Shown piece by piece: positions 2,294-48,295 of a stretch of DNA of 61,645 bases. The stretch spans positions 1 to 61,645 of the forward strand of contig JBEKHC010000018.1 in the NCBI GenBank assembly GCA_050012475.1, in the 5' to 3' direction. The position numbers and the translations under genes were made by a program. Source of the DNA: Candidatus Velthaea sp. Lineage in GTDB: Bacteria > Vulcanimicrobiota > Vulcanimicrobiia > Vulcanimicrobiales > Vulcanimicrobiaceae. Every line of letters starts with the position of its first letter. The stretch's first letter is position 1. The notes beneath the pieces are model-generated. The model was not told the origin of the DNA, did no database searches, and saw nothing but the letters and a program-made list of their open reading frames with translations.

Positions 2294-2322
2294 TTGACAG
2301 CGCAACGTTCACGTGTTACGAA
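2294..2322 (+). promoter_or_regulatory. sigma70-type promoter of the aro operon
   Basis: TTGACA (2294-2299), 17-nt spacer, TG-n-TACGAA (2314-2322); predicted TSS at about the leader ATG 2329. Confidence 0.7.
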
Positions 2323-2328
2323 AAATGG

Positions 2329-2418
2329 ATGACGCCGTCGCCCTTTGCGCTTTCGAGCTGGACGTTTTTTGCGTTTCGTGGCACCACGAGACTCGGGAGT
2401 GGGTTTTTGCGCCGATGA
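2329..2418 (+). CDS. Phe/Trp-rich leader peptide of the aro operon (MTPSPFALSSWTFFAFRGTTRLGSGFLRR)
   Basis: 29 codons with a W-T-F-F-A-F core; all five Phe codons are TTT; lies between promoter and terminator. Confidence 0.75.
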   Translation: MTPSPFALSSWTFFAFRGTTRLGSGFLRR

Positions 2419-4577
2419 AGATGATAGCGCGCGAATCCTACGAAGCTCCCGAGTCGCACGACCGGGAGTTTTTTACGTCAGTCACCGTCACGCCCGCGCA
2501 GCGGCTCTCCGGTTCGCCGGCCGTTCCCGGCGACAAATCGATCTCGCACCGCATGCTCATGCTGGGCGCGCTCGCACACGGCGAGACGCGCATTACCAAC
2601 TTACTCGACTCGGCCGACGTGCGCTCGACGCGCGGCGTGATCGAAGCGCTCGGCGTGCCGGTGTCCGACGTCGACGGCACGGTGGTGGTTCAGGGACGCG
2701 GACCCGCGGCGCTGCACGAGCCGGCCGCGGTGCTCGATTGCGGCAACTCCGGAACCACGATGCGGCTCATGGCGGGCGTGCTCGCGGCCCAACCGTTCGT
2801 CAGTCAGCTCGACGGCGACGACTCGCTGCGCTCGCGCCCGATGCGCCGTGTCGCCGAGCCCTTGTGGGCGCTGGGCGCCACGATCGAGCTGGGCCCCGAT
2901 GAACGCGCGCCGATCGTCGTTCGCGGCGGCAACCTGAGCGGAGCGCACTACGACTTGCCGCTGCCCAGCGCGCAGGTCAAGAGCGCGCTGCTCTTGGGCG
3001 CGCTGGGCGCCGTCGGCGAAACCGTAATCGGCGGCGAGCTGGGGGGCCGCGACCATACCGAGCGCCTCTTACGCCATTTCGGCGTTGAGCTGGAGGTCGG
3101 CGAGCAACTGCGCCTGCGCGGCGGACAAACGCTGCAGGCGGCCGACCTGCGGGTTCCGGGCGATCAGTCCTCGGCTGCATTTTGGCTGGCCGCGGCGACG
3201 ATCGTGCCCGGCAGCTCAGTCCGGGTGGAGGACGTCGGCGTCAATCCGACCCGAATGGGATTCGTGCGCGTGCTCCAGCGCATGGGTGCCAAGATCAGCG
3301 TGACCAGCCCGCAGGGCGACTGCGAACCGGTTGCAACGCTGGTGGCCGAATACGCCGACTTGCGCGCGACCACGATCGACGCCGACGAAGTTCCCGCGCT
3401 CATCGATGAACTGCCGCTCATCGCCATCTTGGCGACGTATGCCGTCGGCCTGACCGAAGTCCGCGGCGCCCGCGAACTGCGCGTCAAGGAGAGCGATCGC
3501 ATCGAAGCGATCGCGGTCAACCTGCGCGCGATGGGCGCCCAAGTCGAGGTGCTCGAGGACGGCTTCCGGATCGCCGGCCCGCAGCCGCTCAATGGCGCAA
3601 AGATCCGCACCTTCGGCGATCATCGCATCGCGATGGCCTGCGCGATCGCCGCGCTCGGCGCGTCTTCCCCGACGACGATCGATGATGCCGCCTGCGTCGC
3701 GATCTCGTATCCCACGTTTTTCGCGACGCTGCGCGAGCTGACCGGCAGCCCGGTGCACGCCGGCGTTCTGGGCTCGTCGCTCGCGCACTCGCGCTCGCCC
3801 GATATTTTCGCCTGGCTCGCTCGCGCGACGGGGACGAACGTTGCCTACGAACGTTTCGAGCGTTCGGAGGGCGATGTGGTCGCGCTGTTCGAGACGATCC
3901 GGCGCGATCCGGCCTTGATGGGCTGCAACGTTACCGTGCCGTACAAGGAGCTGGCCTACCGGCTCGTCGACCGCCGTTCGCCGGTCGCCGAGACGGTCGG
4001 CGCGGTCAACGTCGTGGCACGCCGCGGGGACGGCACGCTCGACGGCCACAACACCGATGTCATCGGGATCCTGGCCACCCTCGACGCGCACGAGATGAAT
4101 CTGCGCGGGAAACAGGTGTGCCTGCTCGGTGCCGGCGGCGCGGCGGCCGCCGCGTTCTACGCGCTCGCGCAGCGCGGTCCAGCCCAGATCGTCGTTGCCA
4201 ACCGCACGCCGGAGCGGGCGGTCGCGCTCATCTCCCGGTTCGCCCGCCACCTGCCCGGCTTATCGCTGCGAGCCGACCCCAAGCCGCGCGAAAAGTTCGC
4301 CCTGGTAGTCGATGCGACCCCGGGCGTCGTCGGCGGCGAAATCGCCTTCGCGCCCGGCAGCTGGGCCTTCGATCTCAAGTACGGTGCGATGCCCTCGCCG
4401 TTCCTGACCCACGTTAAGGCGGCCGGGCTGGCGCAAACCGTCGACGGACTCGAGATGCTCGTCGCGCAGGCGCTGGCCACCTTCGAGATCTGGTTTCGCG
4501 ACGGACGCCCGTTCCCAAGCGACGAAAAAGCGCGCTATATGGACGGATTGCTCGCTCATCTCCGGCACGCGCGATGA
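2415..4577 (+). CDS. aroA: EPSP synthase fused to shikimate dehydrogenase (AroA-AroE); start uncertain (ATG 2415/2421 or ACG 2475)
   Basis: AroA motifs GDKSISHR, SAQVKS, RDHTE, KESDR, DHR; then AroE motifs SRSP, NVTVPYKE, GAVN, NTD, GAGGAA, MLVAQA in one frame. Confidence 0.93.
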   Translation: MKMIARESYEAPESHDREFFTSVTVTPAQRLSGSPAVPGDKSISHRMLMLGALAHGETRITNLLDSADVRSTRGVIEALGVPVSDVDGTVVVQGRGPAALHEPAAVLDCGNSGTTMRLMAGVLAAQPFVSQLDGDDSLRSRPMRRVAEPLWALGATIELGPDERAPIVVRGGNLSGAHYDLPLPSAQVKSALLLGALGAVGETVIGGELGGRDHTERLLRHFGVELEVGEQLRLRGGQTLQAADLRVPGDQSSAAFWLAAATIVPGSSVRVEDVGVNPTRMGFVRVLQRMGAKISVTSPQGDCEPVATLVAEYADLRATTIDADEVPALIDELPLIAILATYAVGLTEVRGARELRVKESDRIEAIAVNLRAMGAQVEVLEDGFRIAGPQPLNGAKIRTFGDHRIAMACAIAALGASSPTTIDDAACVAISYPTFFATLRELTGSPVHAGVLGSSLAHSRSPDIFAWLARATGTNVAYERFERSEGDVVALFETIRRDPALMGCNVTVPYKELAYRLVDRRSPVAETVGAVNVVARRGDGTLDGHNTDVIGILATLDAHEMNLRGKQVCLLGAGGAAAAAFYALAQRGPAQIVVANRTPERAVALISRFARHLPGLSLRADPKPREKFALVVDATPGVVGGEIAFAPGSWAFDLKYGAMPSPFLTHVKAAGLAQTVDGLEMLVAQALATFEIWFRDGRPFPSDEKARYMDGLLAHLRHAR
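2445..2474 (+). terminator. Attenuator terminator of the aro operon
   Basis: Hairpin gctcccg-a-gtc-gcac-gac-cgggag followed by T6; its 5' arm can alternatively pair with gactcgggagt (2390-2400). Confidence 0.7.
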
Positions 4578-17462: not shown

Positions 17463-19937
17463 GTGAAACGTTTGGAAGAACAAGTCCCGTCGTCCGCGTT
17501 CGGAGCGCTGCTGCGGCGGCACCGGTTGGCAGCCGGTCTTTCGCAAGAGGCGTTGGCGGAGCGCGCCCGGATGAGCGCGGTGGGGGTTAGCGCGTTAGAG
17601 CGTGGCCAGCGCCGCGCGCCCTACCGTGAAACCGTTGCGTTGCTCGCGCGGGCGCTCGACTTGCCGCCCGCCGCTGCGGCAGCGTTTGCCACGGCAGCGG
17701 CGGATGCGCGTCAGCGCACGCCGCACCGCGACAGCCCGGCACCGGCTGCTGCCAATAATTTGCCGCCGCACCTCACCTCGTTCGTCGGGCGGCAGCGCGA
17801 AGTCTGCGAGATCGCCGCCTTGGTCGCGGCGCACCGTCTCGTTACGCTCGTGGGCGCAGGCGGGATCGGCAAAACCCGCATCTCGCTCCACGTCGCCGCA
17901 CAACGGCTCGCGGACTGGAGCGACGGCGTTTGGCTCGTCGAGTTGGCGCCGCTGGGGATGGGCGAATACGTGCCCTCGACGGTCGCTCGCGCGATGGGAA
18001 TCACGCTCGCCGGCGACCGTAATCCGCTCGATGATCTCGTGCGTTTTCTCGCGTCGAAGCAGGCATTACTCGTCTTCGACAACTGCGAACACGTCATCGA
18101 ATCGGCGGCGCAGGCCGTCTCCGCAATCGTGCGCGGTTGCCCGCGCGTGACGGTCATGGCGTCGAGCCGTCAAGCGCTCGGGATTGCGGGCGAACAGACG
18201 TACCGGCTGCCGTCGCTCGATCTCCCAACGGTCGGTGATCTGGGGATCGTCAAAGCGCGCGACGCGCTACGGTTCGAGGCGATCGCGCTATTCGTCGAGC
18301 GTGCGCGCACGGTCGACAAGAATTTCGCGTTGAGCGATGACACGGCGTCGGACGTCGCGTGCATCTGCCGGCAGTTGGACGGCATTCCGTTGGCGATCGA
18401 GCTGGCCGCGTCGCGGGTCAAGGTTTTGAGCCCGCGCCAACTGCGCGACCGTCTGGCGGAACGATTTCGTTTGCTCACGGGCGGAAGCCGTGACGTCCTG
18501 CCGCGGCATCGGACGCTGCACGGGCTCATCGACTGGAGCCACGACCTGCTCGACGAACCCCAGCGCGTGCTCTTTCGCCGGCTCTCGATTTTCGCCGGCG
18601 GTTTCACGCTCGAGGGAGCCGCCAGCGTCTGCAGCGACGGCGACTCGACCGAGTTCGAGATCCTCGATGTACTCGCGTCGCTCGTCGACAAGTCGCTGGT
18701 CCTCGCCGAAATCTCCGGGGACGTGCCGCGCTACCGCTTGCTCGAATCGACGCGGGCATATGCTGCGGAGAAGCTGACGCAAGCGGGTGAGGCGGAGGGC
18801 ATTGCGGATCGTCACCTGCGCTATCTGTGCGACCGCTTCGAAGCGCTGCGTGAACGCATGGAACGGACCGCGCGTGAAACCGAACGCGATGATGCCTTTG
18901 GCACGGACTTGGACGACATTCGCGCCGCGCTCGACGCCGCCCAGCGGCGCGGGGATGGGCTGGGGGGCGCGGCACTCTTGGCCGAGATCGGAGACGCCTG
19001 GATTGCGCGCGGTCTGAGAGCGGAGGGCATACGCCGTTGCGAGACGTTGCTCGAAACGGTGCCGCGCAATGAGTCACTCCTGCTGACCCGGTTAGCGACG
19101 GCCTTGAGCTGTCTTGTCGGTCGGGAGTCGCAGGAACGCTCGGTAGCCGCCGCTGCGCAAGCAATTGTCTACGCGCGCGAAAGCGGAAGCCGTTTGCAAC
19201 TCGGTTACGCACTCAGCCGGTACGCCTGGGGAAACTTATCGATGGGCCGTACCGGCGAGGCGGATATCGCGCTGACGGAAGCCGAAACGGTTCCCGACGT
19301 CTCAACCTGGCTACGCGTGGATTTGCTTCGGAGCCGGGCATTTCTTGCGTATCTGAGCAACGACGCCGAGACCGCCGCGCGCATTTGGGTTCGGGTGCGC
19401 ACGGAACAGCGCACCGCGGGAAATGTGCGTGGTGAGCTGTTAGCCGCACTCAACCTCGCCGAGGTCGAGTTCGGCCGGGGGCAAACGCAGCGAGCGATTG
19501 CCCTTGCTCACGAAACGCTTTCCATGGTGCGGGGCGGCACTGATGCCGACATGCTTGCCAATGCGCTCTCGAATCTGGCCGGCTATCTCATCGCGACGGA
19601 CGATCTCGACGACGGCGTGGCGGCGGCCGGCGAGGCGATCCGCCTGCTCGCGGTGCGCGATCCCGTGCACGCCAACATCCTGTTGGCGATCGATCGCCTG
19701 TCGCTCGTTTGTGCGCTGCGCGGCGACCTGACGCGAGCGGCCACGCTCGATGGATACGTAGCGGCTGCATTCGAGCGAGCCGGATACCAGCGCGAGTCGA
19801 CCGATGCGATCACGCACGACCGTCTGATCGCGTTGCTGCGCCTGGGCCTCGACCCCGGCGACCTCGCACGCTTCGCGGCGGAAGGTGCTGCATACTCGCC
19901 CGAGGCGGCGATCTTCTTGGCAACCGAAGAGCGTTAG
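17463..19937 (+). CDS. XRE-HTH + STAND/NB-ARC ATPase + TPR transcriptional regulator
   Basis: GLSQEALAERA HTH; Walker A GAGGIGKT; VFDNCEH; LDGIPLAIELAA; helical C-terminus. Confidence 0.92.
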   Translation: MKRLEEQVPSSAFGALLRRHRLAAGLSQEALAERARMSAVGVSALERGQRRAPYRETVALLARALDLPPAAAAAFATAAADARQRTPHRDSPAPAAANNLPPHLTSFVGRQREVCEIAALVAAHRLVTLVGAGGIGKTRISLHVAAQRLADWSDGVWLVELAPLGMGEYVPSTVARAMGITLAGDRNPLDDLVRFLASKQALLVFDNCEHVIESAAQAVSAIVRGCPRVTVMASSRQALGIAGEQTYRLPSLDLPTVGDLGIVKARDALRFEAIALFVERARTVDKNFALSDDTASDVACICRQLDGIPLAIELAASRVKVLSPRQLRDRLAERFRLLTGGSRDVLPRHRTLHGLIDWSHDLLDEPQRVLFRRLSIFAGGFTLEGAASVCSDGDSTEFEILDVLASLVDKSLVLAEISGDVPRYRLLESTRAYAAEKLTQAGEAEGIADRHLRYLCDRFEALRERMERTARETERDDAFGTDLDDIRAALDAAQRRGDGLGGAALLAEIGDAWIARGLRAEGIRRCETLLETVPRNESLLLTRLATALSCLVGRESQERSVAAAAQAIVYARESGSRLQLGYALSRYAWGNLSMGRTGEADIALTEAETVPDVSTWLRVDLLRSRAFLAYLSNDAETAARIWVRVRTEQRTAGNVRGELLAALNLAEVEFGRGQTQRAIALAHETLSMVRGGTDADMLANALSNLAGYLIATDDLDDGVAAAGEAIRLLAVRDPVHANILLAIDRLSLVCALRGDLTRAATLDGYVAAAFERAGYQRESTDAITHDRLIALLRLGLDPGDLARFAAEGAAYSPEAAIFLATEER

Positions 19938-25396: not shown

Positions 25397-27049
25397 ATGA
25401 GTAAGCTCGATGTCGAGGCCGTCAAAGTCAACAGCCAGGGGTTGCGTGGTCCCATACCCGAGGAACTCGCGGCGCCCACCGATCACTTCGGCGAGGAGGC
25501 CTCGCTGCTGCTCAAGTTTCACGGAACGTACCAGCAAGACGATCGCGACGCGCGCAAGACGATGCGCGAACGCGGTGCTCCGGGACGCGATTATTCGTTC
25601 ATGGTGCGCACCAAAAATCCGGGCGGGTTTCTGCCGGCTGATTTTTACCTCGCCGTCGACCGGCTGGCTGACGAGTTCGGCAACGGAACGATCCGCGTCA
25701 CCACCCGCGGCGGACTTCAATTGCACGGGATCCGCAAAGCCAATCTGCGTGAAACGATCGCGCAGATCAACGCGCATCTGGGCTCGACGCTCGGCGCGTG
25801 CGGCGACATCAACCGCAACGTGATGGCCTCCCCGTTCCCCTTCGCGAGCCCGCCGTACGTCGCGGCGCGCAAGGCGGCCCACGAGATCGCGGAGCTGTTG
25901 ACCCCGCGCGCGACGGCGTACTACGAGATCTGGCAAGACGGCGAGATCGCGCATACAACGGAGCCGGCCGACGAACCGCTTTACGGCAAAGCATTTTTAC
26001 CGCGTAAATTCAAGGTCGCGGTCGCCGTGCCGGGTGACAACAGCGTCGACTTGTACACCAACGATCTGGGCGTCGTGCCGATCGTCGAGACCGGCGGCGG
26101 CGTGGCGGGGTACGATCTCACGGTCGGCGGCGGATTGGGCATGACGCACGGGAAAACGGCGACCTATCCCCGGTTGGCCGACGAGTTTGCGTTCGTGCCC
26201 GCGGCGCGGCTGCTCGACGCCGTGCGCGCGATCGTCATCGTTCAGCGCGACAACGGCGACCGGAGCGACCGCCGGCATGCGCGGCTCAAATATCTCATCG
26301 CCGACCGCGGGTTGGCTTGGTTCCGCGAGCAGGCCGAAGCCGTCGCGGGTTTCCGGCTGGAAAACTGGCGTCCGCTGCCCGCTTGGACGTCGCCCCAATT
26401 CCTGGGTTGGCAGGCGACGGGGGACGGCACCTGGTTCTACGGCCTTTCGATCGCCAACGGCCGCGTCGGCGGCGGGCTCAAAGCCGCGCTGCGCGACGTC
26501 GTGCGTGAAACCAAAGCGGACCTGGTCGCAACGCCCGATCAAAACCTCATCGTGACGGGGATCGGTCCGGCCGGGAAAGCAGCCGTCGATGCCATCCTGG
26601 CAAAGCACGGGGTTGCCGCTCCCGAGACGCTGTCGGTGCGCGAAAAAGTCGCGATGGCCTGTCCCGCGCTGCCCACGTGCGGGTTGGCGCTCGCCGAGTC
26701 TGAACGCGTGCTGCCCTCGATTGTCGGTCAGATCGACGCGGCCTTGACGCGCCTCAATCTTGCCGCCGATCCGATAACGATCCGCATGACCGGCTGTCCG
26801 AACGGGTGCGCGCGCCCGTATATGGGCGAGATCGGCATCGTGGGCGTCAGCGCCGACAAGTATACCTTGTATCTAGGCGGCAACGCCGCGTCGACGCGGC
26901 TCAATCGCGTCTATCGCGAAGGCGTGCGTGCGGCGGAGATCGCCGACGTGCTGACGCCGCTCTTCGCGCGCTGGGCGGCGGAACGCACGCCGGGCGAGGA
27001 ATTCGGCGATTTCTGCGTGCGTGCGGCGTGGGAGAAGATCGCTTCTTGA
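25397..27049 (+). CDS. sir: Sulfite reductase hemoprotein (siroheme/4Fe-4S; Sir/CysI family)
   Basis: KFHGTYQQDDRD, LPRKFK, ACPALPTCGLA, MTGCPNGC. Confidence 0.93.
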   Translation: MSKLDVEAVKVNSQGLRGPIPEELAAPTDHFGEEASLLLKFHGTYQQDDRDARKTMRERGAPGRDYSFMVRTKNPGGFLPADFYLAVDRLADEFGNGTIRVTTRGGLQLHGIRKANLRETIAQINAHLGSTLGACGDINRNVMASPFPFASPPYVAARKAAHEIAELLTPRATAYYEIWQDGEIAHTTEPADEPLYGKAFLPRKFKVAVAVPGDNSVDLYTNDLGVVPIVETGGGVAGYDLTVGGGLGMTHGKTATYPRLADEFAFVPAARLLDAVRAIVIVQRDNGDRSDRRHARLKYLIADRGLAWFREQAEAVAGFRLENWRPLPAWTSPQFLGWQATGDGTWFYGLSIANGRVGGGLKAALRDVVRETKADLVATPDQNLIVTGIGPAGKAAVDAILAKHGVAAPETLSVREKVAMACPALPTCGLALAESERVLPSIVGQIDAALTRLNLAADPITIRMTGCPNGCARPYMGEIGIVGVSADKYTLYLGGNAASTRLNRVYREGVRAAEIADVLTPLFARWAAERTPGEEFGDFCVRAAWEKIAS

Positions 27050-27078
27050 CGTGAGCTTTCGGCACCGGGCGGCCGGCG

Positions 27079-27621
27079 TCAGCCGGCTTCGTCGGCTTCC
27101 GCCGAGCCGTGCTTGTGTTTGGTCAAGTAGAGCGCGACAGCGATGAGCGCGATGCCGATCGCGAGATAGAGCAGATCTAATGCGGTGCGCGGCGTCGATT
27201 CGAGCGCGTACTCGAAATAGCGCACGATCAGAATGAGGAACACGACCTTCGCCAGGCGCTCTTTGAGATCGTCGAGGCTGCGAATGAGCAGCAGACGGGC
27301 GGCGATCGTCGAGTTTTCGATCGCGTCGATCTTGTTGATGAAAAGTTCGTACAACCCCAAGGCGAAGATGATGAGGATCGTCGCAAAGAGATAGCCGTCG
27401 ACGATTTCGGCGACGTGCGATACGACGCTGGCGTGCATTTTGTCGCGCGCCACGGCGTCGAGGACCGGGTAGTGCAGCACCTCCCGGCTCAGAAAATACG
27501 CGTCGGTCGTGGCGACGTAGAACATGACGAACGATACGACCAGACTCGCGATCACCGCGACGAGGGTCACGAGGCGGCTGCTCCAAAGCAGCTTCTCAAA
27601 GCTGCGTTCGACGGCTCTCAT
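27079..27621 (-). CDS. YqhA/UPF0114 family membrane protein
   Basis: FEKLLWSSR, IFALGLYELFI, SLDDLKERLAKV. Confidence 0.85.
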   Translation of the reverse strand: MRAVERSFEKLLWSSRLVTLVAVIASLVVSFVMFYVATTDAYFLSREVLHYPVLDAVARDKMHASVVSHVAEIVDGYLFATILIIFALGLYELFINKIDAIENSTIAARLLLIRSLDDLKERLAKVVFLILIVRYFEYALESTPRTALDLLYLAIGIALIAVALYLTKHKHGSAEADEAG

Positions 27622-27628
27622 CACGCTT

Positions 27629-28198
27629 TCACCGTCCCGGATCGATGAGCTGCTCGAACCGGTCGCGCAACGCCGCGAACGCAAGCGGCTCGGCGACGTC
27701 GGTCGCCGGCGGTCGTAACGTGCGCTGCCACCACGCAGTGTCGTGCCACGCCCCGAATTTGTAGCCGACATTGCGATAGACGCCGACAGGTTCGAAGCCC
27801 AAAGCGCGATGCAAGCCGATGCTGGCTTCGTTGGGCAGCGTGATGCCCGCGAACGCGTTATAATATCGCTGCGCGCGCAAGATCGCAAAGAGCGCTTGGT
27901 ACAGGCGCCGGCCGATGCCGCCCCGGCGCCCCTGCTCGGCCACGTACACCGAAACGTCGACGGACCAGCGATACGCCGCCCGCGCGCGGTGCTGCGCGGC
28001 GTAGGCGTAGCCGAGAACGCTGCCGTTGCTGGCGATCAGCCACGGCCACTGCTCCTCGGCCGCCGCGATGCGCCGCGCGATCTCCGCGGCGTCGGGTGCG
28101 GCGACCTCGAATGAGATCGTAGTGCGCTCGACGATCGGTGCATAGATGGCCGCGATCCCTGCCGCATCGCCGGCCGTGACGATGCGCAGCGCGGTCAC
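27629..28198 (-). CDS. GNAT acetyltransferase, phosphinothricin/arsinothricin acetyltransferase-like
   Basis: ISFE, RAAYRWSVDVSVYV, NEASIGLH, GYKFGAWHD. Confidence 0.9.
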   Translation of the reverse strand: MTALRIVTAGDAAGIAAIYAPIVERTTISFEVAAPDAAEIARRIAAAEEQWPWLIASNGSVLGYAYAAQHRARAAYRWSVDVSVYVAEQGRRGGIGRRLYQALFAILRAQRYYNAFAGITLPNEASIGLHRALGFEPVGVYRNVGYKFGAWHDTAWWQRTLRPPATDVAEPLAFAALRDRFEQLIDPGR

Positions 28199-28232
28199 CG
28201 CGGGCGAGCCGTCGCGGGCGAGCGCAACTGCA

Positions 28233-29246
28233 TCAGCGCCCGATGCGCGTGCGCAGGCCGACGACCGCCAGCAAACCGACGTTACGATCCGATAAGCCGC
28301 CGCGTCCGCCCACGTAGCTCGACGTATAGTTCAAATAGCGCAGTCCGATGATCGCCTCGCTGTGCGTTCCGATGGAATGCACGTACCGCACGCCGGTATC
28401 GATCTGTCCGGCTTTCTCGGGGTTGATCCGCGGCGCGTACTGCGCCACGTCGTACGTGGTGTATTGCGTGCCGACCATCGCGGGAGCGTAGTTGAAAACG
28501 GCCTCGAACCGGCCGGCGTGATACGGCACGGCGTACCCGGCTTGATACGTCAAGCCGGTAACGCGCGAGAATTGCCGTTCACCCGTGCCGGCGATCTCGA
28601 CGGGATCGAGATAATGCGTCGACTGGTTGTACAGTGTTTGGCCGATGCCGGCGCTGAAACGGTGCAGCGGGTCCCACACGCGCAACATTCCGGTGAAGAC
28701 CGACAATTGGGTCGACGTGCGGCCTTGCGTGATGTCGTCCGAGCGCACCGAGGCGACTCCCGGCAAGCCGCTCAGGTCGAGTTCGAACGGTCCGTAGCGT
28801 TCGCGAAACTCGATGAGCGGAATGGGGACCGGCGGCACGTGGACGCGGTCGTTGAAGCTCTCGTGCAGACCGTAGAGCACCGGATTGAGCGTGAGGCCGA
28901 GGTCGGCCGACGCCTCGTCGGCGCGCGCGGTTGAAGAGACGCTCGTCCCGAGCGCGCAGATCGCGAGGAGGACCGCCGGCAGCCGGCGCGGGCGCTTTTT
29001 CGGACGCTCGTCCGCAACGCAGACCGTGAGGGCTTTCCCGTCCAGCGAAAAACCGGAAAAAACGTCGATCGCGGCCCGGGCGCGCTCGGCATCGGGAATT
29101 TCGACGTAAGCGAAGCCTTTGCGGCGGCGCGTGCGGCGGTCGCGCGGCAGAACGACTCCGGTTTCATTCGCTCCAAACTGCCGGAAGAGCCGAACGATGT
29201 CGTCCTTGTTCGCCCTCTGCGGCAGGCCGCCGACGAAGATGCGCAT
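28233..29246 (-). CDS. RRM RNA-binding domain + internal signal peptide + beta-barrel-like domain
   Basis: RNP2 IFVGGL, RNP1 KGFAYVEI; RPKKRPRR-LPAVLLAICALG-TSVSSTARA/D; alternating amphipathic strands to the C-terminus. Confidence 0.8.
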   Translation of the reverse strand: MRIFVGGLPQRANKDDIVRLFRQFGANETGVVLPRDRRTRRRKGFAYVEIPDAERARAAIDVFSGFSLDGKALTVCVADERPKKRPRRLPAVLLAICALGTSVSSTARADEASADLGLTLNPVLYGLHESFNDRVHVPPVPIPLIEFRERYGPFELDLSGLPGVASVRSDDITQGRTSTQLSVFTGMLRVWDPLHRFSAGIGQTLYNQSTHYLDPVEIAGTGERQFSRVTGLTYQAGYAVPYHAGRFEAVFNYAPAMVGTQYTTYDVAQYAPRINPEKAGQIDTGVRYVHSIGTHSEAIIGLRYLNYTSSYVGGRGGLSDRNVGLLAVVGLRTRIGR

Positions 29247-29645
29247 TCCTCAACGTCAATGGGATACGCGGCGTGCCTCTCCCTTTGTCGGGCTCCGGCT
29301 CCGCAGAGTCAGGAGGCATGCCGCGGTCGCGATCTTCCTGTCGTGGCACGTTCGCGGCTCGAGTCACTCTTTGTCCGCACTAGGACATTCTGCTCTTGTT
29401 AATCTAGGGGCAAGCGGCGATCATCGGTTGCACTACGGAGTGAACGCTTGTTCCGGCTGTATCCCTAGGCCAGCGGCCTGTCCGCCTTTTTGCTGGCCGG
29501 ATGCGTACCGGCGCCTTCGGCTTCGCGGTCTTTTTCAGTCGTGCTTTTCGTCCGAAAGGCGCTTGGTTCGGGACGATCGCGTACGGTTCTTGGGCTGACC
29601 CGATGCGGCGTATCGATCGCTTCCAGGCGATGGAGAGTTCAGGGT

Positions 29646-32600
29646 ATGCGCATCGACTTCTTCCGGCGGTCCCTCATCATTGCGTGGGTCGTCGCGTTCG
29701 TTGGTGCGAACGCGCTCGCGGTCCCCAGTTCAGCAGCTGGCGTGATGCCGCGCGGGGCGCAGATCGTCAGCGGCGCAAGCAGCGCCGTTGACACGCGTCT
29801 GGGTGTGAACCTCGACGATCTGGCGCAAACCGGAAGCGTCGTCTTCACCGACGCCATGAAACAAGCCGCGCCGTGGACGAGCGATCGCGCGCTGTCGCTC
29901 GATGCGAACGGCAATGTCACCCAGCTCGCGCCCGGGCAAGTTGCGCAAACGCTCATCTACCCGTATGCGGTGTATCCGTCGGGCGATTACACCCTGCTCT
30001 ATGACGGACGCGGAACGATCGACATCGATCCGCAATCGGGAACCATCACGCGCGTCGCCGCCGGCCGCGCCGTCGTGCACGTCGCGGCGCGTCTCGGCTA
30101 CGGCATCCGCTTGCAATTGAGCGCGACGGATCCCGCCAACTACGTCCGCAACGTGCGGCTCGTCGTCCCAGGCTTCGAGTCGGCTTATCAAAATCAACCC
30201 TTCGCGCCCGCGTTTCTTTCCCGGCTGTCGGGCTTCAACGTCTTGCGATTCGTCCACTGGTCGCACGGCGACACCTCCGCCGTGCCGCTGACCTGGCCGA
30301 TGCGGCCGGCGGTTGCTGCCTTCACCCAAGCCGGCTCCGCCGGTGTGGCTTGGGAGTACCAAATCGCCCTGGCCAACGCCGTGGGCGCCGATGCCTGGTT
30401 CGTCGTGCCCGCCGGCGCGACGAACTTCTACGTGACGCAGCTTGCGGCGCTCGTGCACGCGCGTCTCGATCCGCGTCTGCATGCCATGTTCGAATACGCC
30501 GACGGCGCTTGGCGGCCCGGCTCGCCGGCCAACGGCTATGCCGTGATGGCCGGCCGCAATTTCCATTTGGCGTCCGATGCGCAAAGCGCCGCGCTGGCCT
30601 GGTACGGCGCTCGTTCGAGCCAGATCTACGCGCTGGTCAGCGAAGTTTTCGGCGCGGATGCCGGGCGCATCGTGCGCGTTTTGGGCGGCGCTGCGGCGTT
30701 GCCGCGCTCGCCGGCTGAAAGCGTCGATCGCACGATCTTCGCGGCGGCAGGCGCCGCGCAGCACGCCGACGCCTTCGCCGTCGATACCACCGGCGCGGCC
30801 CCTGCCGCGATCGCGAACACGCATGCGCTGCTGGCCGGAACGCGCATCGAGCTCATCGCATCCGGCGGTGCGGCCGCGTTTACCAGCGCGCAGAATGTCG
30901 CCCCGGCAACGCGCGCGCAGCTCGATGCCTGGCGGACGGCCGGGGGCGGTTTGTTTGCGGCGAGTTCGGTCAACGGCGCGTTCGCCGCGGCCGGGCTGCT
31001 GAGCCGGTTGTCCGTCGCGCTTGAAGCGCAAGTCGACGCGTTGCGTTCCGCTGCCCTTGCCGCGTACGCGCAGCTCCATCCCACCGCGCACCTGACCCCG
31101 CTTCCGCTCGCAGCGCAGAGCGTGCTGGCGCCGATCGTGCACCCCAACACCTACGTGCCGAGCGCAACGGCGAAAAAGGCGCTGGCCGTCACCGCGGCGG
31201 CCGGAACCGACGTCCTCGCAATCAACGCCGGCGGTCCGGCGACCGGAAATTTCGCCGCCGACGAGTTCTTCAGCACGGCCGATACGTGGACGTACACGAC
31301 CACGACGGCGGTCGCGACGGCCGGCGTTACGAACGCAGCGCCGGCGGCCGTCTATCAGACGCAGCGCACCGGCGTCTTCACCTACACGCTGCCGAACCTG
31401 ACCGCGGGCACCGCATATACCGTGCGGCTGCATTTTGCGGAACTGTACTTCAAGGCTGCGTCCCAGCGGGTCTTCAACGTCAGCGTCAACGGCGCGAGCG
31501 CCGTCACGAACCTAGATGTCTTCAGCGCGGCAGGCGGCGCGAACAAGGCGCTGGTCGAGAACATCAACGCAACGGCCAACGCGGCGGGCCAAATCGTGAT
31601 CGCTTTCTCGGCGGTCACCAACAACCCGATCGTCAACGGCATCGAAATCGTCGCCGGCAGCGGCGGAGCGACACCCACGCCGACGCCCACCGCAACCGCG
31701 ACACCGATTTCGGGCTCTGACGTGGTGGCCATCAACGCCGGCGGCCCGGCAACGGGCACCTTCGCCGCCGACGAGGACTTCACGTCGGTCAGCACCTGGA
31801 CGTTTACCACCGCGACGACGGTCGCCACGGCCGGGGTCACCAATCCGGCGCCGGAGGCCGTGTATCAATCGCAGCGCGCCGGTACCTTCGGCTATACGAT
31901 TCCTGGTCTGACGGCTGGGGCGACCTACACGCTGCGCCTGCATTTCGCGGAGTTGTACTTTAACGCCGCGGGCCAGCGGGTCTTCAACGTCAGCGTCAAC
32001 GGTGCGAGCGCCTTGACGAATCTCGATGTGTTCGCGACCGCCGGCGGTTCGTTCAAAGCGCTTGTCGAGAATCTCTCGGCCACCGCGAACAGCGCGGGGC
32101 AGATCGTGATAACGTTCTCGGCGGTCACCAATAACCCGATCGTCAACGGCATCGAAGTGCAAACCGGCGGCGGCGGCGGTGGACCGACGCCGACGCCGAC
32201 CCCGACCGTCGCGCCGACGGCGACCCCGGCGGGATCGCCGGCCGACGTGCCCCAGTACCATAACAACACCGGGCGCACGGGCTGGAACTCGTCGGAAACC
32301 ATCCTGAACACGACCAACGTCGCGTCGTCGAAGTTCGGGCTGCGGCAAGTCCTCACCGTCGACGGGCTGGTGATGGCGCAGCCCTTATATATCGCGAACT
32401 ATCCGGTCAACGGCGCCAATCACAACGTGCTCGTGGTTGCTACCGAGCACAACTCGGTCTACGCCTTCGACGCCGATAGCGGCGCCGTGTTGTGGCAGTA
32501 TTCCTTCGGCGTGACGCAATCGTCGTCCACCGATGTGGGCTGCAGCGATATCGAGCCGGAGCTCGGCATCACCAGCACACCCGCCATCGACCGCTCGACC

Positions 32601-33767
32601 GGGACCATCTACGCGGTGTACGCGAGCAAGACGGCATCGGGAACGTTGACCACCAACGTCGGCGCGCTCGATCTGGGCAGCGGCACGGTGAAGATCCCGG
32701 CTGTGCGAATCGCAGCATCGGCGACCCTGAGCAACGGGTCGGTCGTGAGTTACAACGACACGCAGGAAATGCAGCGGGCCTCGGTGCTCTTGGCAAACGG
32801 TTCGATCTATCTCGGGTTCGGCTCGCATTGCGATTACGGCTTGACGACGAATTCCGGCTGGCTGATGCGCTACGCCGAATCGAACCTCGCCCAGCTGGCG
32901 GCGTTCAATACCATCGAGGACGGCGTGAGCGCCGGCGGCACCGAGTTGGGCTCGATCTGGGGCTCCGGCTTCGGGCCTTCGGCCGATGCTGCGGGCAACA
33001 TCTACACCGTCACCGGGAACGGCGCGTTCGACGCCAGCAGCGGCGGACACAATTACGGCATGAGCGTGCTGAAATTCTCGCCCACGCTGGCCGGCGGTCC
33101 CATCGACTGGTTCGCCTATAAGAACGAAGCGGCCGACAGCGACAACGACGACGATTTCGGCTCGGGCGGGTCGATGCTGTTGCCGCCGCAAGCCGGGAGC
33201 TTCCCCAACATTCTCGTGCAGATGGGCAAGACCGACAACATCTATTTGCTCAACCAGAACAACTTGGGCCACTTCTCGACGACCGATGCGGGCGCGCTGC
33301 AAGTATTCTTCCCGGGCGCCGACTCGACCAACGAAGGCGTGTGGGGCGGCGGTGCGTATTACAACGGACCGAATGGGCCGACGGTCTTCTACCAAGCCAG
33401 TGAAAGCGTGATGCGCGCCTTCAAGCTCACTACCGGCAGCGGCAATCCGCAGCTGAGCGTGAGTTCGCAAGGAACCGTTCAGCCGTACGATTTCGGCGGC
33501 ACCATTCCGGTCGTCTCGTCCAACGGCAGCGCGGCGGGCAGCGGCATCGTCTGGACAATCGACTCACCGTATAACGCGAGCGCGACGATTGCCGCGCTCA
33601 AGCTCGAAGCGTACGACGCGAGCAACGTTGCGACCCATCTGTTCTCAGCGTCGTCGGGCAGCTGGTCGCATGCGAAGACCAATACGTTCATCACGCCGCT
33701 GGTGTCGAACGGGAAAGTCTACGCTGGTGGTTACAAAACCGTGTACGTCTTCGGTCTAACGCCGTGA
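29646..33767 (+). CDS. Large secreted protein: glycoside-hydrolase-like domain, two malectin domains, PQQ-type beta-propeller
   Basis: Signal peptide; AINAGG...VRLHFAELY...RVFNV...NGIE twice; PT linkers; YHNNTGRTG, GITSTP, DFGSGG. Confidence 0.85.
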   Translation: MRIDFFRRSLIIAWVVAFVGANALAVPSSAAGVMPRGAQIVSGASSAVDTRLGVNLDDLAQTGSVVFTDAMKQAAPWTSDRALSLDANGNVTQLAPGQVAQTLIYPYAVYPSGDYTLLYDGRGTIDIDPQSGTITRVAAGRAVVHVAARLGYGIRLQLSATDPANYVRNVRLVVPGFESAYQNQPFAPAFLSRLSGFNVLRFVHWSHGDTSAVPLTWPMRPAVAAFTQAGSAGVAWEYQIALANAVGADAWFVVPAGATNFYVTQLAALVHARLDPRLHAMFEYADGAWRPGSPANGYAVMAGRNFHLASDAQSAALAWYGARSSQIYALVSEVFGADAGRIVRVLGGAAALPRSPAESVDRTIFAAAGAAQHADAFAVDTTGAAPAAIANTHALLAGTRIELIASGGAAAFTSAQNVAPATRAQLDAWRTAGGGLFAASSVNGAFAAAGLLSRLSVALEAQVDALRSAALAAYAQLHPTAHLTPLPLAAQSVLAPIVHPNTYVPSATAKKALAVTAAAGTDVLAINAGGPATGNFAADEFFSTADTWTYTTTTAVATAGVTNAAPAAVYQTQRTGVFTYTLPNLTAGTAYTVRLHFAELYFKAASQRVFNVSVNGASAVTNLDVFSAAGGANKALVENINATANAAGQIVIAFSAVTNNPIVNGIEIVAGSGGATPTPTPTATATPISGSDVVAINAGGPATGTFAADEDFTSVSTWTFTTATTVATAGVTNPAPEAVYQSQRAGTFGYTIPGLTAGATYTLRLHFAELYFNAAGQRVFNVSVNGASALTNLDVFATAGGSFKALVENLSATANSAGQIVITFSAVTNNPIVNGIEVQTGGGGGGPTPTPTPTVAPTATPAGSPADVPQYHNNTGRTGWNSSETILNTTNVASSKFGLRQVLTVDGLVMAQPLYIANYPVNGANHNVLVVATEHNSVYAFDADSGAVLWQYSFGVTQSSSTDVGCSDIEPELGITSTPAIDRSTGTIYAVYASKTASGTLTTNVGALDLGSGTVKIPAVRIAASATLSNGSVVSYNDTQEMQRASVLLANGSIYLGFGSHCDYGLTTNSGWLMRYAESNLAQLAAFNTIEDGVSAGGTELGSIWGSGFGPSADAAGNIYTVTGNGAFDASSGGHNYGMSVLKFSPTLAGGPIDWFAYKNEAADSDNDDDFGSGGSMLLPPQAGSFPNILVQMGKTDNIYLLNQNNLGHFSTTDAGALQVFFPGADSTNEGVWGGGAYYNGPNGPTVFYQASESVMRAFKLTTGSGNPQLSVSSQGTVQPYDFGGTIPVVSSNGSAAGSGIVWTIDSPYNASATIAALKLEAYDASNVATHLFSASSGSWSHAKTNTFITPLVSNGKVYAGGYKTVYVFGLTP
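31209..32156 (+). repeat. Intragenic tandem duplication of a malectin domain (31209-31646 and 31719-32156)
   Basis: Highly similar units at a 510-nt offset. Confidence 0.9.
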
Positions 33768-33775
33768 GGAATATC

Positions 33776-34099
33776 ATGCACAATCGCGGGTCATTTCTGG
33801 TCGCCGCCGGAGCGTTCGCGGCGAGCGCGGTTCCGCTCGCGGCGATGGCCGCTCCGGCGACGAACCGGGTCACGGGGGTCGTCGTTGCGGTCAGCAACAA
33901 CGCGCTGCTCCTGCAGAAGCGTGACGGCACGAAGCTCATGGTCGATCTGACGGAAGCGCGGGCCAAGTCGCGAGTTGGGGTGCTCGCGCCGGGGCGGGCC
34001 GTCGAAGTCTACGGGACGTATTTAGCCGATGGGACGTTCCATTGCGTTGCCACCGGACACGCCGCGCAGATCGTCCGCTCCTGGCAGCCGGATCGGTAA
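33776..34099 (+). CDS. Small secreted OB-fold-like protein
   Basis: GAGGA SD; signal peptide; VTGVVVAV...GRAVEVYG. Confidence 0.75.
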   Translation: MHNRGSFLVAAGAFAASAVPLAAMAAPATNRVTGVVVAVSNNALLLQKRDGTKLMVDLTEARAKSRVGVLAPGRAVEVYGTYLADGTFHCVATGHAAQIVRSWQPDR

Positions 34100-34121: not shown

Positions 34122-35216
34122 TTACGGCGTTGGGCGGTCGCGGAACGCCGGCCAATCGCCGGCTTCGATGGCGGCGCGGGCCTGCGTCATGAGCGCGTCG
34201 AGCATGAAAACGTTGTGATACGACACTAAGCGCATTCCCAACAGTTCCCGCGCGCGAAAGAGATGCGCGAGGTAGGCCCGGCTGTACGTCGCGCAAACTT
34301 CGCACGCGCAGACCGGATCGAGCGGCGTGTAGTCGCGCGTGAACCCGGCGTTGTGCAGGTTCAATTCGCCGGCTCGCGTGAGCGCGCGGCCGTGGCGGCC
34401 CGAACGCGTCGGATAGACGCAGTCGAACATGTCGATGCCGCAATCGATGCCGGCGATCAAATCGCGAACCGTCCCGACGCCCATGAGATAGCGCGGCTTC
34501 GCCGTGGGCAGCAGCGCGGCGGTGAACCGCGCCATGCGCACCATCTCCTCGCGCGTCTCGCCGACCGACAAACCGCCGATCGCATAGCCGCTGACGTCGA
34601 GGGTGACGAGATTGGCCGCACTGCGCATGCGCGCGCGTTCGTCCAGCGCGCCCTGGACGATCGCGAACAGCGCGGTCGGGCCGCGGCGCCAAACGTCGGC
34701 CGCCCGCCGTGCCCACAGGCTCGTCCGCCGCACCGAGTCGTCGACGGCCGCCGCGGACGCCGGAAGTTTGATGCACTCGTCGAGCACCATGGCGATATCC
34801 ACACCCAACTCTTCCTGAAACGCGATCACGTTTTCGGGCGTGAACCGGTGGCTGCTGCCATCGATATGCGAACGGAAGGTGACCCCGTCATCGTCGAGCG
34901 TCCGGCGCGACTCGAGGCTGAAGACCTGATAGCCGCCCGAATCGGTGAGGATCGGTCCGTCCCAGGCCATGAAGCGGTGCAACCCGCCGCCGGCAGCGAG
35001 CGTCTCACGCCCGGGCCGGAGCCAGAGGTGATAGGTGTTGGCCAAGATGATCTGCGCACCGGCTTCGCGCAGATCGCGCGGCGTGAGCGCTTTGACGGTC
35101 GCGGCCGTGCCGACCGGCATGAACGCCGGCGTCTCGACGGCGCCGTGCGCGAGCGTGAGCCGGCCTCGCCGGGCGTCGCCCGAAGTCGCCTGCAGGGCGA
35201 ACGCGAGCGAACTCAC
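34122..35216 (-). CDS. tgt: tRNA-guanine transglycosylase
   Basis: TPAFMPVGT, LTDSGGYQ, PRYLMGVG, DMFDCV, CACEVC zinc site. Confidence 0.96.
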   Translation of the reverse strand: MSSLAFALQATSGDARRGRLTLAHGAVETPAFMPVGTAATVKALTPRDLREAGAQIILANTYHLWLRPGRETLAAGGGLHRFMAWDGPILTDSGGYQVFSLESRRTLDDDGVTFRSHIDGSSHRFTPENVIAFQEELGVDIAMVLDECIKLPASAAAVDDSVRRTSLWARRAADVWRRGPTALFAIVQGALDERARMRSAANLVTLDVSGYAIGGLSVGETREEMVRMARFTAALLPTAKPRYLMGVGTVRDLIAGIDCGIDMFDCVYPTRSGRHGRALTRAGELNLHNAGFTRDYTPLDPVCACEVCATYSRAYLAHLFRARELLGMRLVSYHNVFMLDALMTQARAAIEAGDWPAFRDRPTP

Positions 35217-46002: not shown

Positions 46003-46327
46003 CTTCCACCGCGCGGTCCGTCGATTAAAATCCGCGGTCGCCCATCCAGCCGCGCACGTTTGGCGAGCTTGAGGCCGCCCTCGGGATTCGCGGCTATGCC
46101 GGTCTCCAACCCAACCTCTTCCATCAGCGCTGCGAAGCGCTGAACGGCCTTCGGCCGAGCCGCGGACGGTCTTGCGGTTCGCGGCACGCTGGCGGCATGG
46201 GGCGGAGCTAGGCTACAGGCATGACGTCTGTGCTGCTGCCGCCGCTTCGTTCCTTCGCGCGGGACGCGATCGCCGTCTGCCCTCGCTCGGCATTTGCGCT
46301 TCGGGCCGGCGCTGTGGCGAGCGTTCG

Positions 46328-48295
46328 ATGAACGCCCAGCGCGTGCAAACGGTCATCCGCATCGGATGCGTGCTCGCGGCGATCCTTGCCGGCGGCACGG
46401 CGGTTGCCGAGTCGGGGAACGCGGCGCAAACACCGCAGCGGGTCCAGCTCGTGGCGCAGTTCGGCCTCGGCGACCTCGTCGGCGCCGGGAAAGACCTCGC
46501 GGTCAAATCGGCGCTGTCCGCCTTCGGCAAGTCGCTCGGCGATCAGCTGCCGATCGTGGTTGCGGCCAACGACGCGTATCCGACGGTCCCGTCGTTGCCG
46601 GGCGCCGCGTTCGCGCCGGCCGATGCGCCCGATATCAGCGCGGCGCTGCGCGCGTCGCGCGACGGAACGATCGCGCTGCCGCCCGGCGATTACGAGTTCC
46701 CGGTGGGAGTCTTCTGCATGCGCGCGACGTCCGGAAGCCCGCCCGGCCACCGCTATCTCGTCGCGCCGCTGCGGGGGAGCGCCGCCGACATCGTCACCGC
46801 GCTGGACGCACGTATTCCGTCGTACCCGACGGATCATCACGTGCTGCAAGTCCTGTCTTGGGACATCCAAGCCGGCATGGCGTATTCCGCGATGCAGCCC
46901 GACCAGCGCGCCGCCGTCGATCGCATCATTCCCGACTATCGCAGCCGGCTGAACGGTGACGTCTACCAAAACATCCGCGACCAGTATCAGAAGACCGCCG
47001 GGAGCGTCCCCGGCATGCCGTCGTTCGAAGATGCGCTCACGCGCATCGGACCCGTCGGCGCGCAGGTCGTCGCGCTGCAGAATCTGCGGCAGCAACTCGC
47101 CCAGCCGCCGCCCACGTTCGACGAACTCGCGCGCCGGCTCGTCCCAATCTTGCCCGCGCCCAAAACACCCGAGGGCGCAGGGCCGACGCCCTGGAGTCGC
47201 TACTCCGATCGGGTCTTCGTTCGATTCGTCACCGACGGCAACTATGCCACACCCGGAACGTACCAGGTGCGCGTCCTTGCGCCGGCCGGTTCAGCCGCAC
47301 CCGGGCCGGCGGGAGCCGCAGCGTCAGGTCCGCTCGGACCATCGGGCTCGGCCGCCCCGGCCTCCGCCGGCGTCCCGTTCACGAATACCGTCAACAATCC
47401 CGGCAGCGACGCCATTCAGCCCCTCACGCAGACGCCGTCGGCGCCGGTCGGCTATCATCCGCCGGGACCTCGTGCGCGCCCGACGCCCCCCGAGCCGAAA
47501 ATCATCTCCGAGACCGCTGCGACGATCCCGGCGAACCGGGCACGCACGCTCATCGGCGTCGGTGAACTCGTCATGCTCACGTTCACGGGCGGATCGGCCC
47601 TCTGGCACATCAACGGCCTAGGCGGGATGCTGCAGCCGGTCGGTCCGGACACCGCGCTGTATCGCGCTGCGCCGCAGGCCGCCTACGAAACGATCACCGC
47701 GACCGGCGTGCACGGCTCAGCGACGATCAGTTTCCAGGTCATCCCGCCGACCGGCGTCATCGACCGGGTCGTCGAGGGAACCTTGGATCTGCATCACCAC
47801 GATCGGCCGGACTCGGGCGTTCTCGTGCACACGTTCCTGACGCCCGACACCGTATCGTTCCAATTCATCCTGGTGATCGAGCGCGAAGTCGGCGCGGTCG
47901 GCAGCGGTGTATTCTTGCCCTTTAACAATATTGGGCATCATCCGCTCGACGTTTTCCTGCCGGTGGGCCCCGTCGTCCCCGGGCTTGGTTCGCCGATGCA
48001 ATCGGTCGACACCGCCTACTCCGGCGATCCGTGCACAGCGCCGCCGTTCGCTCCCGGGACCCTTGTCTTTTACATTCCGTACGAGTACGAATTGCGCGGC
48101 ACGACCCAGTCGTATCTGTTCCCGAGATCGGTCGTGCAGACCAGCGAAGTGCTGCTCGGCGGCAGCAACCTCCAAACCGCAAAGGCCGGAGCGTTCATGA
48201 CCGGACGCATCTCGGATCCGACGACGACCGCAAGACGGGGATGCGCGGATCCGCCCGACCCGCCGCCCGCTCCGCCGAAAAAAGCCAAGCACTAG
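46328..48295 (+). CDS. Secreted two-domain protein: thioester-like N-domain, Pro-rich linker, unknown C-domain
   Basis: Signal peptide; FCMRATSGSP...Y and LQVLSW; linker; IISET...RARTLIGVGE domain. Confidence 0.75.
   Translation: MNAQRVQTVIRIGCVLAAILAGGTAVAESGNAAQTPQRVQLVAQFGLGDLVGAGKDLAVKSALSAFGKSLGDQLPIVVAANDAYPTVPSLPGAAFAPADAPDISAALRASRDGTIALPPGDYEFPVGVFCMRATSGSPPGHRYLVAPLRGSAADIVTALDARIPSYPTDHHVLQVLSWDIQAGMAYSAMQPDQRAAVDRIIPDYRSRLNGDVYQNIRDQYQKTAGSVPGMPSFEDALTRIGPVGAQVVALQNLRQQLAQPPPTFDELARRLVPILPAPKTPEGAGPTPWSRYSDRVFVRFVTDGNYATPGTYQVRVLAPAGSAAPGPAGAAASGPLGPSGSAAPASAGVPFTNTVNNPGSDAIQPLTQTPSAPVGYHPPGPRARPTPPEPKIISETAATIPANRARTLIGVGELVMLTFTGGSALWHINGLGGMLQPVGPDTALYRAAPQAAYETITATGVHGSATISFQVIPPTGVIDRVVEGTLDLHHHDRPDSGVLVHTFLTPDTVSFQFILVIEREVGAVGSGVFLPFNNIGHHPLDVFLPVGPVVPGLGSPMQSVDTAYSGDPCTAPPFAPGTLVFYIPYEYELRGTTQSYLFPRSVVQTSEVLLGGSNLQTAKAGAFMTGRISDPTTTARRGCADPPDPPPAPPKKAKH

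Follow-up and report, generated by a model that had tools for sequence, protein, structure and literature searches.

In a Vulcanimicrobiaceae (Eremiobacterota) bacterium we found a single gene that joins an RNA-binding RRM domain, in one reading frame, to an internal signal peptide and an outer-membrane-type beta-barrel. We hold, with moderate confidence, that it encodes a natural polyprotein derived from two fused operon neighbours behind rluD-tgt, and that its two products work independently. The two proteins would probably end up on opposite sides of the inner membrane although made from one precursor. The gene occupies the minus strand of 28233-29246 in the window (the whole stretch of DNA analysed, 61,645 nt), where all 337 codons are open without an internal stop (ORF translation); the order of its parts, RRM, basic tail, internal signal peptide and beta-barrel, follows from an alignment of 40 full-length clusters. 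On the same strand the RRM domain covers 29007-29246 (aa 1-80), the basic tail, which would serve as n-region, 28983-29006 (aa 81-88), the h- and c-region of the signal peptide 28920-28982 (aa 89-109) and the mature barrel 28233-28919 (aa 110-337), which has an OpcA/omptin-like fold and belongs to a family that Pfam does not model. A one-frame fusion is what the preliminary description had read here, and both parts were confirmed; its further proposal of one polyprotein with a cytoplasmic RRM, an internal signal of the cleavable type and an outer-membrane-type barrel is supported as well, where cleavage and location are what we infer from the features of the chain.

That an assembly or strain artefact joined two separate genes appears extremely improbable. 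Split forms do exist, and two database entries (P0012 and P0052) have frameshifted N-termini, as such an artefact might leave. However, contigs from two other runs cross the junction (X2, 28004-29105; X3, 28909-29371) with 0 differences and 0 gaps; the check used X2 and X3 out of 20 runs containing the sequence, together with two RNA runs, and excluded X1, the possible source run. Furthermore, single fused frames are present at 8 of 24 metagenome loci, separately assembled, and when relatives were sought, 40 of the 60 best proteins (8000 candidates scored; query included) covered at least 99% of the query and carried RRM_1. They represent at least 40 full-length clusters at 90% identity, i.e. 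this protein and 39 others (52-84% identity, 334-358 aa). The contigs of the two runs, the 8 loci and the clusters together refute the artefact. In the RNA runs (X19 and X20; share 0.10-0.11) contigs cover solely the barrel and its 3' boundary, not the RRM. One of the frameshifted entries, P0012 (266-kb contig), has a barrel 100% identical to the one described here and an RRM part read in another frame; an indel error in a long-read assembly would probably account for this frame change, or else it may reflect a strain variant.

The fusion is restricted to a single clade, since among the best 150 of the 50%-identity representatives retrieved by an exhaustive profile search one full-length entry and one fragment span both parts. 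Record titles of the carriers name Vulcanimicrobiaceae, Ca. Velthaea and kin, which form one group of bacteria from peat and soil. Of 348 family genomes, G000 and G003 carry the fusion intact and G263 carries a damaged form; the G001 contig ends inside the barrel. The fusion has been retained in two genera or more, at a divergence of about 50%. Purifying selection acts on the RRM (dN/dS 0.04-0.17 over 10 gene pairs) as well as on the barrel (0.10-0.40), and the junction gives 0.18-0.52 (one junction value saturated). We conclude that the fusion is real, conserved and apparently undescribed, a variant of the polyprotein split by signal peptidase.

The claim of a complete RRM at aa 1-80 stood. 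RRM_1 (PF00076) spans aa 3-73 with 54 bits against a gathering cut-off of 20.7 (Pfam), and the motifs are in place: RNP2 (IFVGGL) at aa 3-8, an arginine-rich loop at aa 35-43 and RNP1 (KGFAYVEI) at aa 43-50. The best solved relative is the bacterial RRM PDB 7jly (E 9e-12). The RNP aromatics are retained, with F/Y at aa 4 and Y/F at aa 47 in 40/40 proteins each; aa 45 is F in 26/40, including this protein, and V or I in 14/40. The NCBIfam model Rbp_regulator (NF058537) scores 55 bits, under its curated cut-off of 100. In the host genome (94% complete) this is the sole RRM_1 match, and G003 and G263 likewise have no other RRM that we found. The basic tail (aa 81-88) is the same as the C-terminus of a stand-alone RRM in sister genera. 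Fourfold-site identity is flat along the gene (0.44-0.62 per 20 codons), with no local drop in synonymous change of the kind an RNA element would leave, and we ruled out a conserved RNA element on this ground.

Behind the RRM, the basic stretch RPKKRPRR (aa 81-88) runs into a hydrophobic segment (aa 89-100) and then A107-R108-A109/D110, just as the preliminary description had it. Signal peptidase I is predicted from the sequence to cut after A109. The conservation of the columns is concentrated at the site, with 88% identity at -3 and 97% at -1, compared to 46% in the h-region and 35% in the c-region; both -3 and -1 are small residues in 40/40 and a strict A-x-A is present in 34/40. The n-region carries a net charge of +4 to +6 in 40/40, and a helix is modelled over the h-region. 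Kyte-Doolittle hydropathy over the best 12 residues comes to 2.44, and to 2.47 for 18 stand-alone signals that belong to this barrel family (p 0.67). Basic n-region, h-region length and small -3/-1 residues are thus those of a Sec/signal peptidase I substrate; the N-terminal position is not, as the signal starts at about aa 81. Two other signal types were rejected: the strict Tat motif S/T-R-R-x-F-L is found in 0/40 proteins, with no RR in 6/40 and the loose RRx[FL] in 27/40, and the lipobox cysteine pattern of lipoproteins in 1/40. In its composition the junction would behave like a cleavable signal, from which we infer cleavage and the location of the products.

Could the protein remain uncleaved and span both membranes, like the Dma anti-sigma factors, or hold its barrel at the inner membrane? 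The order of the parts is that of Dma1, for which the available part of the source describes a cytoplasmic regulator, an inner-membrane helix and an outer-membrane barrel in one chain (PMC10927553). However, Dma1 as described there stays whole and crosses the periplasm on a long disordered linker that leads to an 8-stranded barrel; here there is no such linker and the peptidase site is conserved. From the cleavage site to a conserved Asn (aa 121) there are 10-11 residues in 40/40 proteins, so that the chain cannot span the periplasm as Dma1 does. The A-x-A site is kept and the helix is short, with a hydrophobicity no higher than that of cleaved signals. We consider a spanning or inner-membrane-held form very improbable.

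The C-terminal part (aa 110-337) has no Pfam match. In an AF2 model with the 40-row alignment (pLDDT 84.4) the RRM is followed by a helix (89-103), a stretch of low confidence (101-109) and, between 113 and 335, twelve strand elements; folded without an alignment the barrel reached a pLDDT of 30, and the model in use is the one from the 40-row alignment. Structure comparison returned OpcA (Z 20.6, rmsd 2.3 over 200 residues), Dot/Icm porin I (Z 19.8) and pOmpT (Z 19.8), Foldseek placed omptins first, and the Atlas neighbours OpcA, OMP_b-brl and autotransporter lie at 0.96-0.98, all of which bears out the outer-membrane-type barrel of the preliminary description. OpcA and the omptins are 10-stranded barrels. 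By likeness to OpcA, the twelve elements group as about ten membrane strands, and hydropathy alternates in 10 (hand-chosen) strand segments. The fold is that of the OpcA adhesin and of the omptin proteases; however, the barrel is without their Pfam matches (for Omptin, PF01278, no match at E 0.1 here nor in 18 relatives), and identity to OpcA, Dot/Icm porin and pOmpT is 8-14%, so that a function cannot be transferred from OpcA or the omptins. Tandem barrels of the same family occur in nine proteins (P0068, P0092, P0101, P0102, P0111, P0117, P0128, P0131 and P0136), each as one chain of 477-575 aa with a single N-terminal signal peptide and, by eye, no second signal in the linker.

Across relatives the locus holds every state at once, which makes it a testable model of how polyproteins form and break. 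In the first state, an RRM of about 90 aa with the same basic tail stands alone behind rluD-tgt (7 loci, two of them from the unpublished genomes G022 and G024; the point holds on the other five), and in 7/7 loci examined it is the syntenic orthologue behind tgt. After the RRM stop of one of these loci (L009, genome G019) we observed REP-type short palindromic repeats, and similar ones at the same place in L005 (G024). In the second state the barrel stands alone behind tgt (genera g78 and g87; in g78 its start often overlaps the tgt stop), and no RRM_1 was found in the barrel-only genomes G271 and G272. In the third state (G257), RRM and barrel are encoded by separate genes, the stop of one overlapping the start of the other. 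In the fourth, the two genes overlap by about 15 codons (eight metagenome loci, L036-L043, and G192), and the barrel ATG is formed across the Val-Cys codons at RRM aa 75-76. In L036-L043 and L080 the barrel signal peptide is overprinted on the last ~15 RRM codons (codons 75-91), and its basic n-region is the RRM tail read in the other frame. The fifth state is the fusion. In the sixth and last, the fusion has been broken again: RRM remnants precede an intact barrel in G002, L034, P0040, P0043 and P0049, and G263 (one assembly) has an intact RRM followed by a barrel with a deletion and an early stop. One indel at the last RRM codons turns the third or fourth state into the fifth. In the tgt+rluD tree G257 lies outside the fused clade, which suggests that two coupled genes preceded the fusion. 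The overlapping-gene clade is nested among fused forms in this tree (99/93, with L044, whose contig ends before the junction), and grouping all fused forms together is not rejected (p-AU 0.16); for the barrel tree (13 of 77 rows removed as near-copies or, in two cases, long branches) the constrained topology outscored the free search by 11 log units (p-AU 0.64). The tests are compatible both with a split of the fused gene and with a fusion of the separate ones.

A further reading, which we regard as quite improbable, is that there are two translation products, most of the barrel being translated from a start codon inside the frame close to the junction, with the form that includes the RRM as a minor product or dead end. 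The preliminary description had stated that no Met or other start codon lies before the signal; this holds for ATG, GTG and TTG but not for CTG, of which two lie in frame (aa 68 and 89), neither with a conserved counterpart. Besides these two codons, an internal start is favoured by a GTG at V75 in 4/9 fused genes, which would yield a normal signal peptide, and by the separate-gene relatives, which begin the barrel at the very same place in the other frame. However, no in-frame ATG, GTG, TTG or CTG is common to all 9 fused genes examined, V75 is GTC in this gene, L033 has none of the four codons in aa 50-100, and GTG is a common Val codon here (135/408). The rare GTA that forms the barrel start is found in 9/9 split loci but in 1/9 fused genes (and at 2/124 Val codons in the tgt genes of split loci); a used start therefore leaves a visible mark, with GTA fixed in the split forms, and the fused genes lack it. 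A programmed frameshift giving a free RRM was likewise rejected, as no shared slippery site was seen by eye in the junctions.

For the cleaved polyprotein with two independent products, which we prefer, the following course can be proposed. The RRM would fold in the cytoplasm, and its own basic tail (+5), acting as n-region, would keep the N-terminus inside; the h-region would enter SecYEG as a loop with the RRM left behind, signal peptidase I would cut after A109 and the 228-aa barrel would go to BamA. The 109-aa remnant would be an RRM tethered to the inner membrane on a short anchor, which RseP may free as it does other signal peptides. The RRM might act as a broad post-transcriptional RNA binder like Rbp proteins, and the barrel might serve at the surface as an adhesin or form a small channel. 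The fusion would be tolerated as the peptidase undoes it, and would at most fix 1:1 co-expression. In the AF2 model, 3 residues separate the predicted site from the first strand. BamA, RseP and signal peptidase I (two genes) are encoded in the host, and a cultured member of the family has an outer membrane and a Gram-negative envelope, according to the available part of its description (PMC9758169). Separate-gene, RRM-deleted and barrel-damaged forms at the same locus speak for independence, since the two parts have been separated or deleted there several times. Counting against this reading, export by a signal behind a folded 80-aa domain would be unusual, and the fusion has lasted longer than a purely neutral join might. 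If it holds, nature would here have placed a folded, conserved cytoplasmic domain at the head of a cleavable signal peptide, a clear example suggesting that Sec and signal peptidase can deal with a signal 80 residues into a chain and that a functional protein can be left over as the remnant.

We think it unlikely, if worth considering, that the protein is an export-coupled RNA regulator, i.e. that the membrane-held RRM is released by signal peptidase and RseP and reports Sec/BAM flux or envelope stress, or anchors envelope or photosynthesis mRNAs. The long life of the fusion would fit this, as would the stronger conservation of the RRM relative to the barrel (83% vs 76% column identity in the 40-row alignment), its being the only RRM found in G000, G003 and G263, and the nesting of the separate-gene clade among fused forms in the tgt+rluD tree, by which the fusion may be old. 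Precedents for the single steps are, as far as the available parts of these sources go, RsiV (PMC4183432), RtmR (PMC12265689) and mRNA targeting by Rbp2/3 (PMC12232666). However, at the same locus some lineages have the gene in two parts and others no RRM or a damaged barrel, no feature of the junction differs from ordinary signal peptides, and there is no synonymous dip marking an RNA element. Reaction-centre genes are present in 9/10 genomes whatever the architecture and were not found in the fused G263 (86% complete); they do not track the fusion, and we rejected a link to phototrophy. Because relatives make both products from separate genes, have deleted the RRM or carry a damaged barrel, the link between RRM and barrel looks dispensable and two independent products are indicated; the suggestion of the preliminary description that the fusion could link export of the barrel with post-transcriptional control, or position mRNA at the membrane, is not borne out by these relatives. 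The specific form in which an RRM regulator is the signal-peptide remnant of an outer-membrane protein, one per barrel exported, with RseP setting its release, is doubtful to us; were it true, post-transcriptional control would be wired directly to secretion flux, and a tether with a regulatory role would connect RNA control with protein export in a new way.

In line with the preliminary description, which knew of no example, we found no RRM-signal-barrel protein in the full-text literature (few subscription papers, main texts only; a table of RRM architectures in a supplement might list it). The FbcH cytochrome b/c1 polyprotein of Bradyrhizobium also consists of two fused operon neighbours with an internal signal peptide and is split by cleavage. 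FbcH yields two subunits of one membrane complex, whereas the products here are without a known common function and would reside in the cytoplasm and the outer membrane. Each ingredient appears to have a precedent by analogy: a membrane RRM in RtmR, an internal signal peptidase site in RsiV and FbcH, and a regulator with a barrel in Dma1. RtmR (VF_2432) of Vibrio fischeri is a membrane-embedded RRM protein (PMC12265689) and hence a published exception to the generalization, made in the preliminary description, that bacterial RRM proteins are stand-alone and cytoplasmic. As far as its available account goes, it shares with the present protein a single bacterial RRM on the cytoplasmic face of the inner membrane and likely broad RNA binding; however, it has two N-terminal helices and a C-terminal RRM, with neither barrel nor cleavage in that account, whereas here the RRM begins at aa 1, one helix follows and the tether would be a by-product of barrel export. 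RsiV of Bacillus subtilis, in the accessible part of the report, has a cytoplasmic N-terminal part, one helix and an A-x-A cut at 66/67 by signal peptidase, after which RasP, a site-2 protease, cuts (PMC4183432); the order of cytoplasmic part, helix and conserved A-x-A deep in the chain is shared. In RsiV cleavage is lysozyme-gated and the repressor is destroyed, whereas here cleavage would be routine and needed for barrel folding, and the cytoplasmic part would bind RNA. Rbp-type RRM proteins, i.e. cyanobacterial Rbp1-3 (PMC12232666) and Bacteroides RbpB, are stand-alone; these and the ~90-aa tgt-linked RRM share the fold, the RNP motifs and the basic tail but, as described in the available parts of the sources, have no signal and no barrel, unlike this gene.

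Around the gene, a GNAT acetyltransferase gene follows downstream (27629-28198, minus strand; Pfam), the same neighbour as in G003, L026, L027 and L034. The tgt gene (queuine tRNA-ribosyltransferase; 34122-35216, minus strand; Pfam and neighbourhood comparison) lies upstream, with an rluD-type gene before it. In most relatives tgt is directly upstream of the RRM gene, whereas here a malectin gene is inserted between them: the insert (29490-34099, plus strand) comprises a 1425-aa ORF, whose product has two malectin domains and ends in a propeller-like part, together with a small DUF5666-like gene, and is absent from this place in G003. A promoter scan of 27000-29750 returned one site, at chance level, and none before the RRM-barrel gene. 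C1 of G192 carries the reaction-centre L/M genes three times, near 537-539, 974-975 and 982-983 kb, and two of these sets are broken in the same way, which may be an assembly duplication. Elsewhere in the window, on the plus strand, an 824-aa ORF (17463-19937) has an N-terminal XRE-type helix-turn-helix and ~750 remaining residues without a Pfam match (E 1e-5), and a 707-aa ORF (46172-48295), likewise without a Pfam match (E 1e-5), shows a coding-like GC3 bias. On the same strand, 2313-4577 encodes EPSP synthase fused to shikimate dehydrogenase in a 754-aa frame, followed by chorismate synthase and DHQ synthase.
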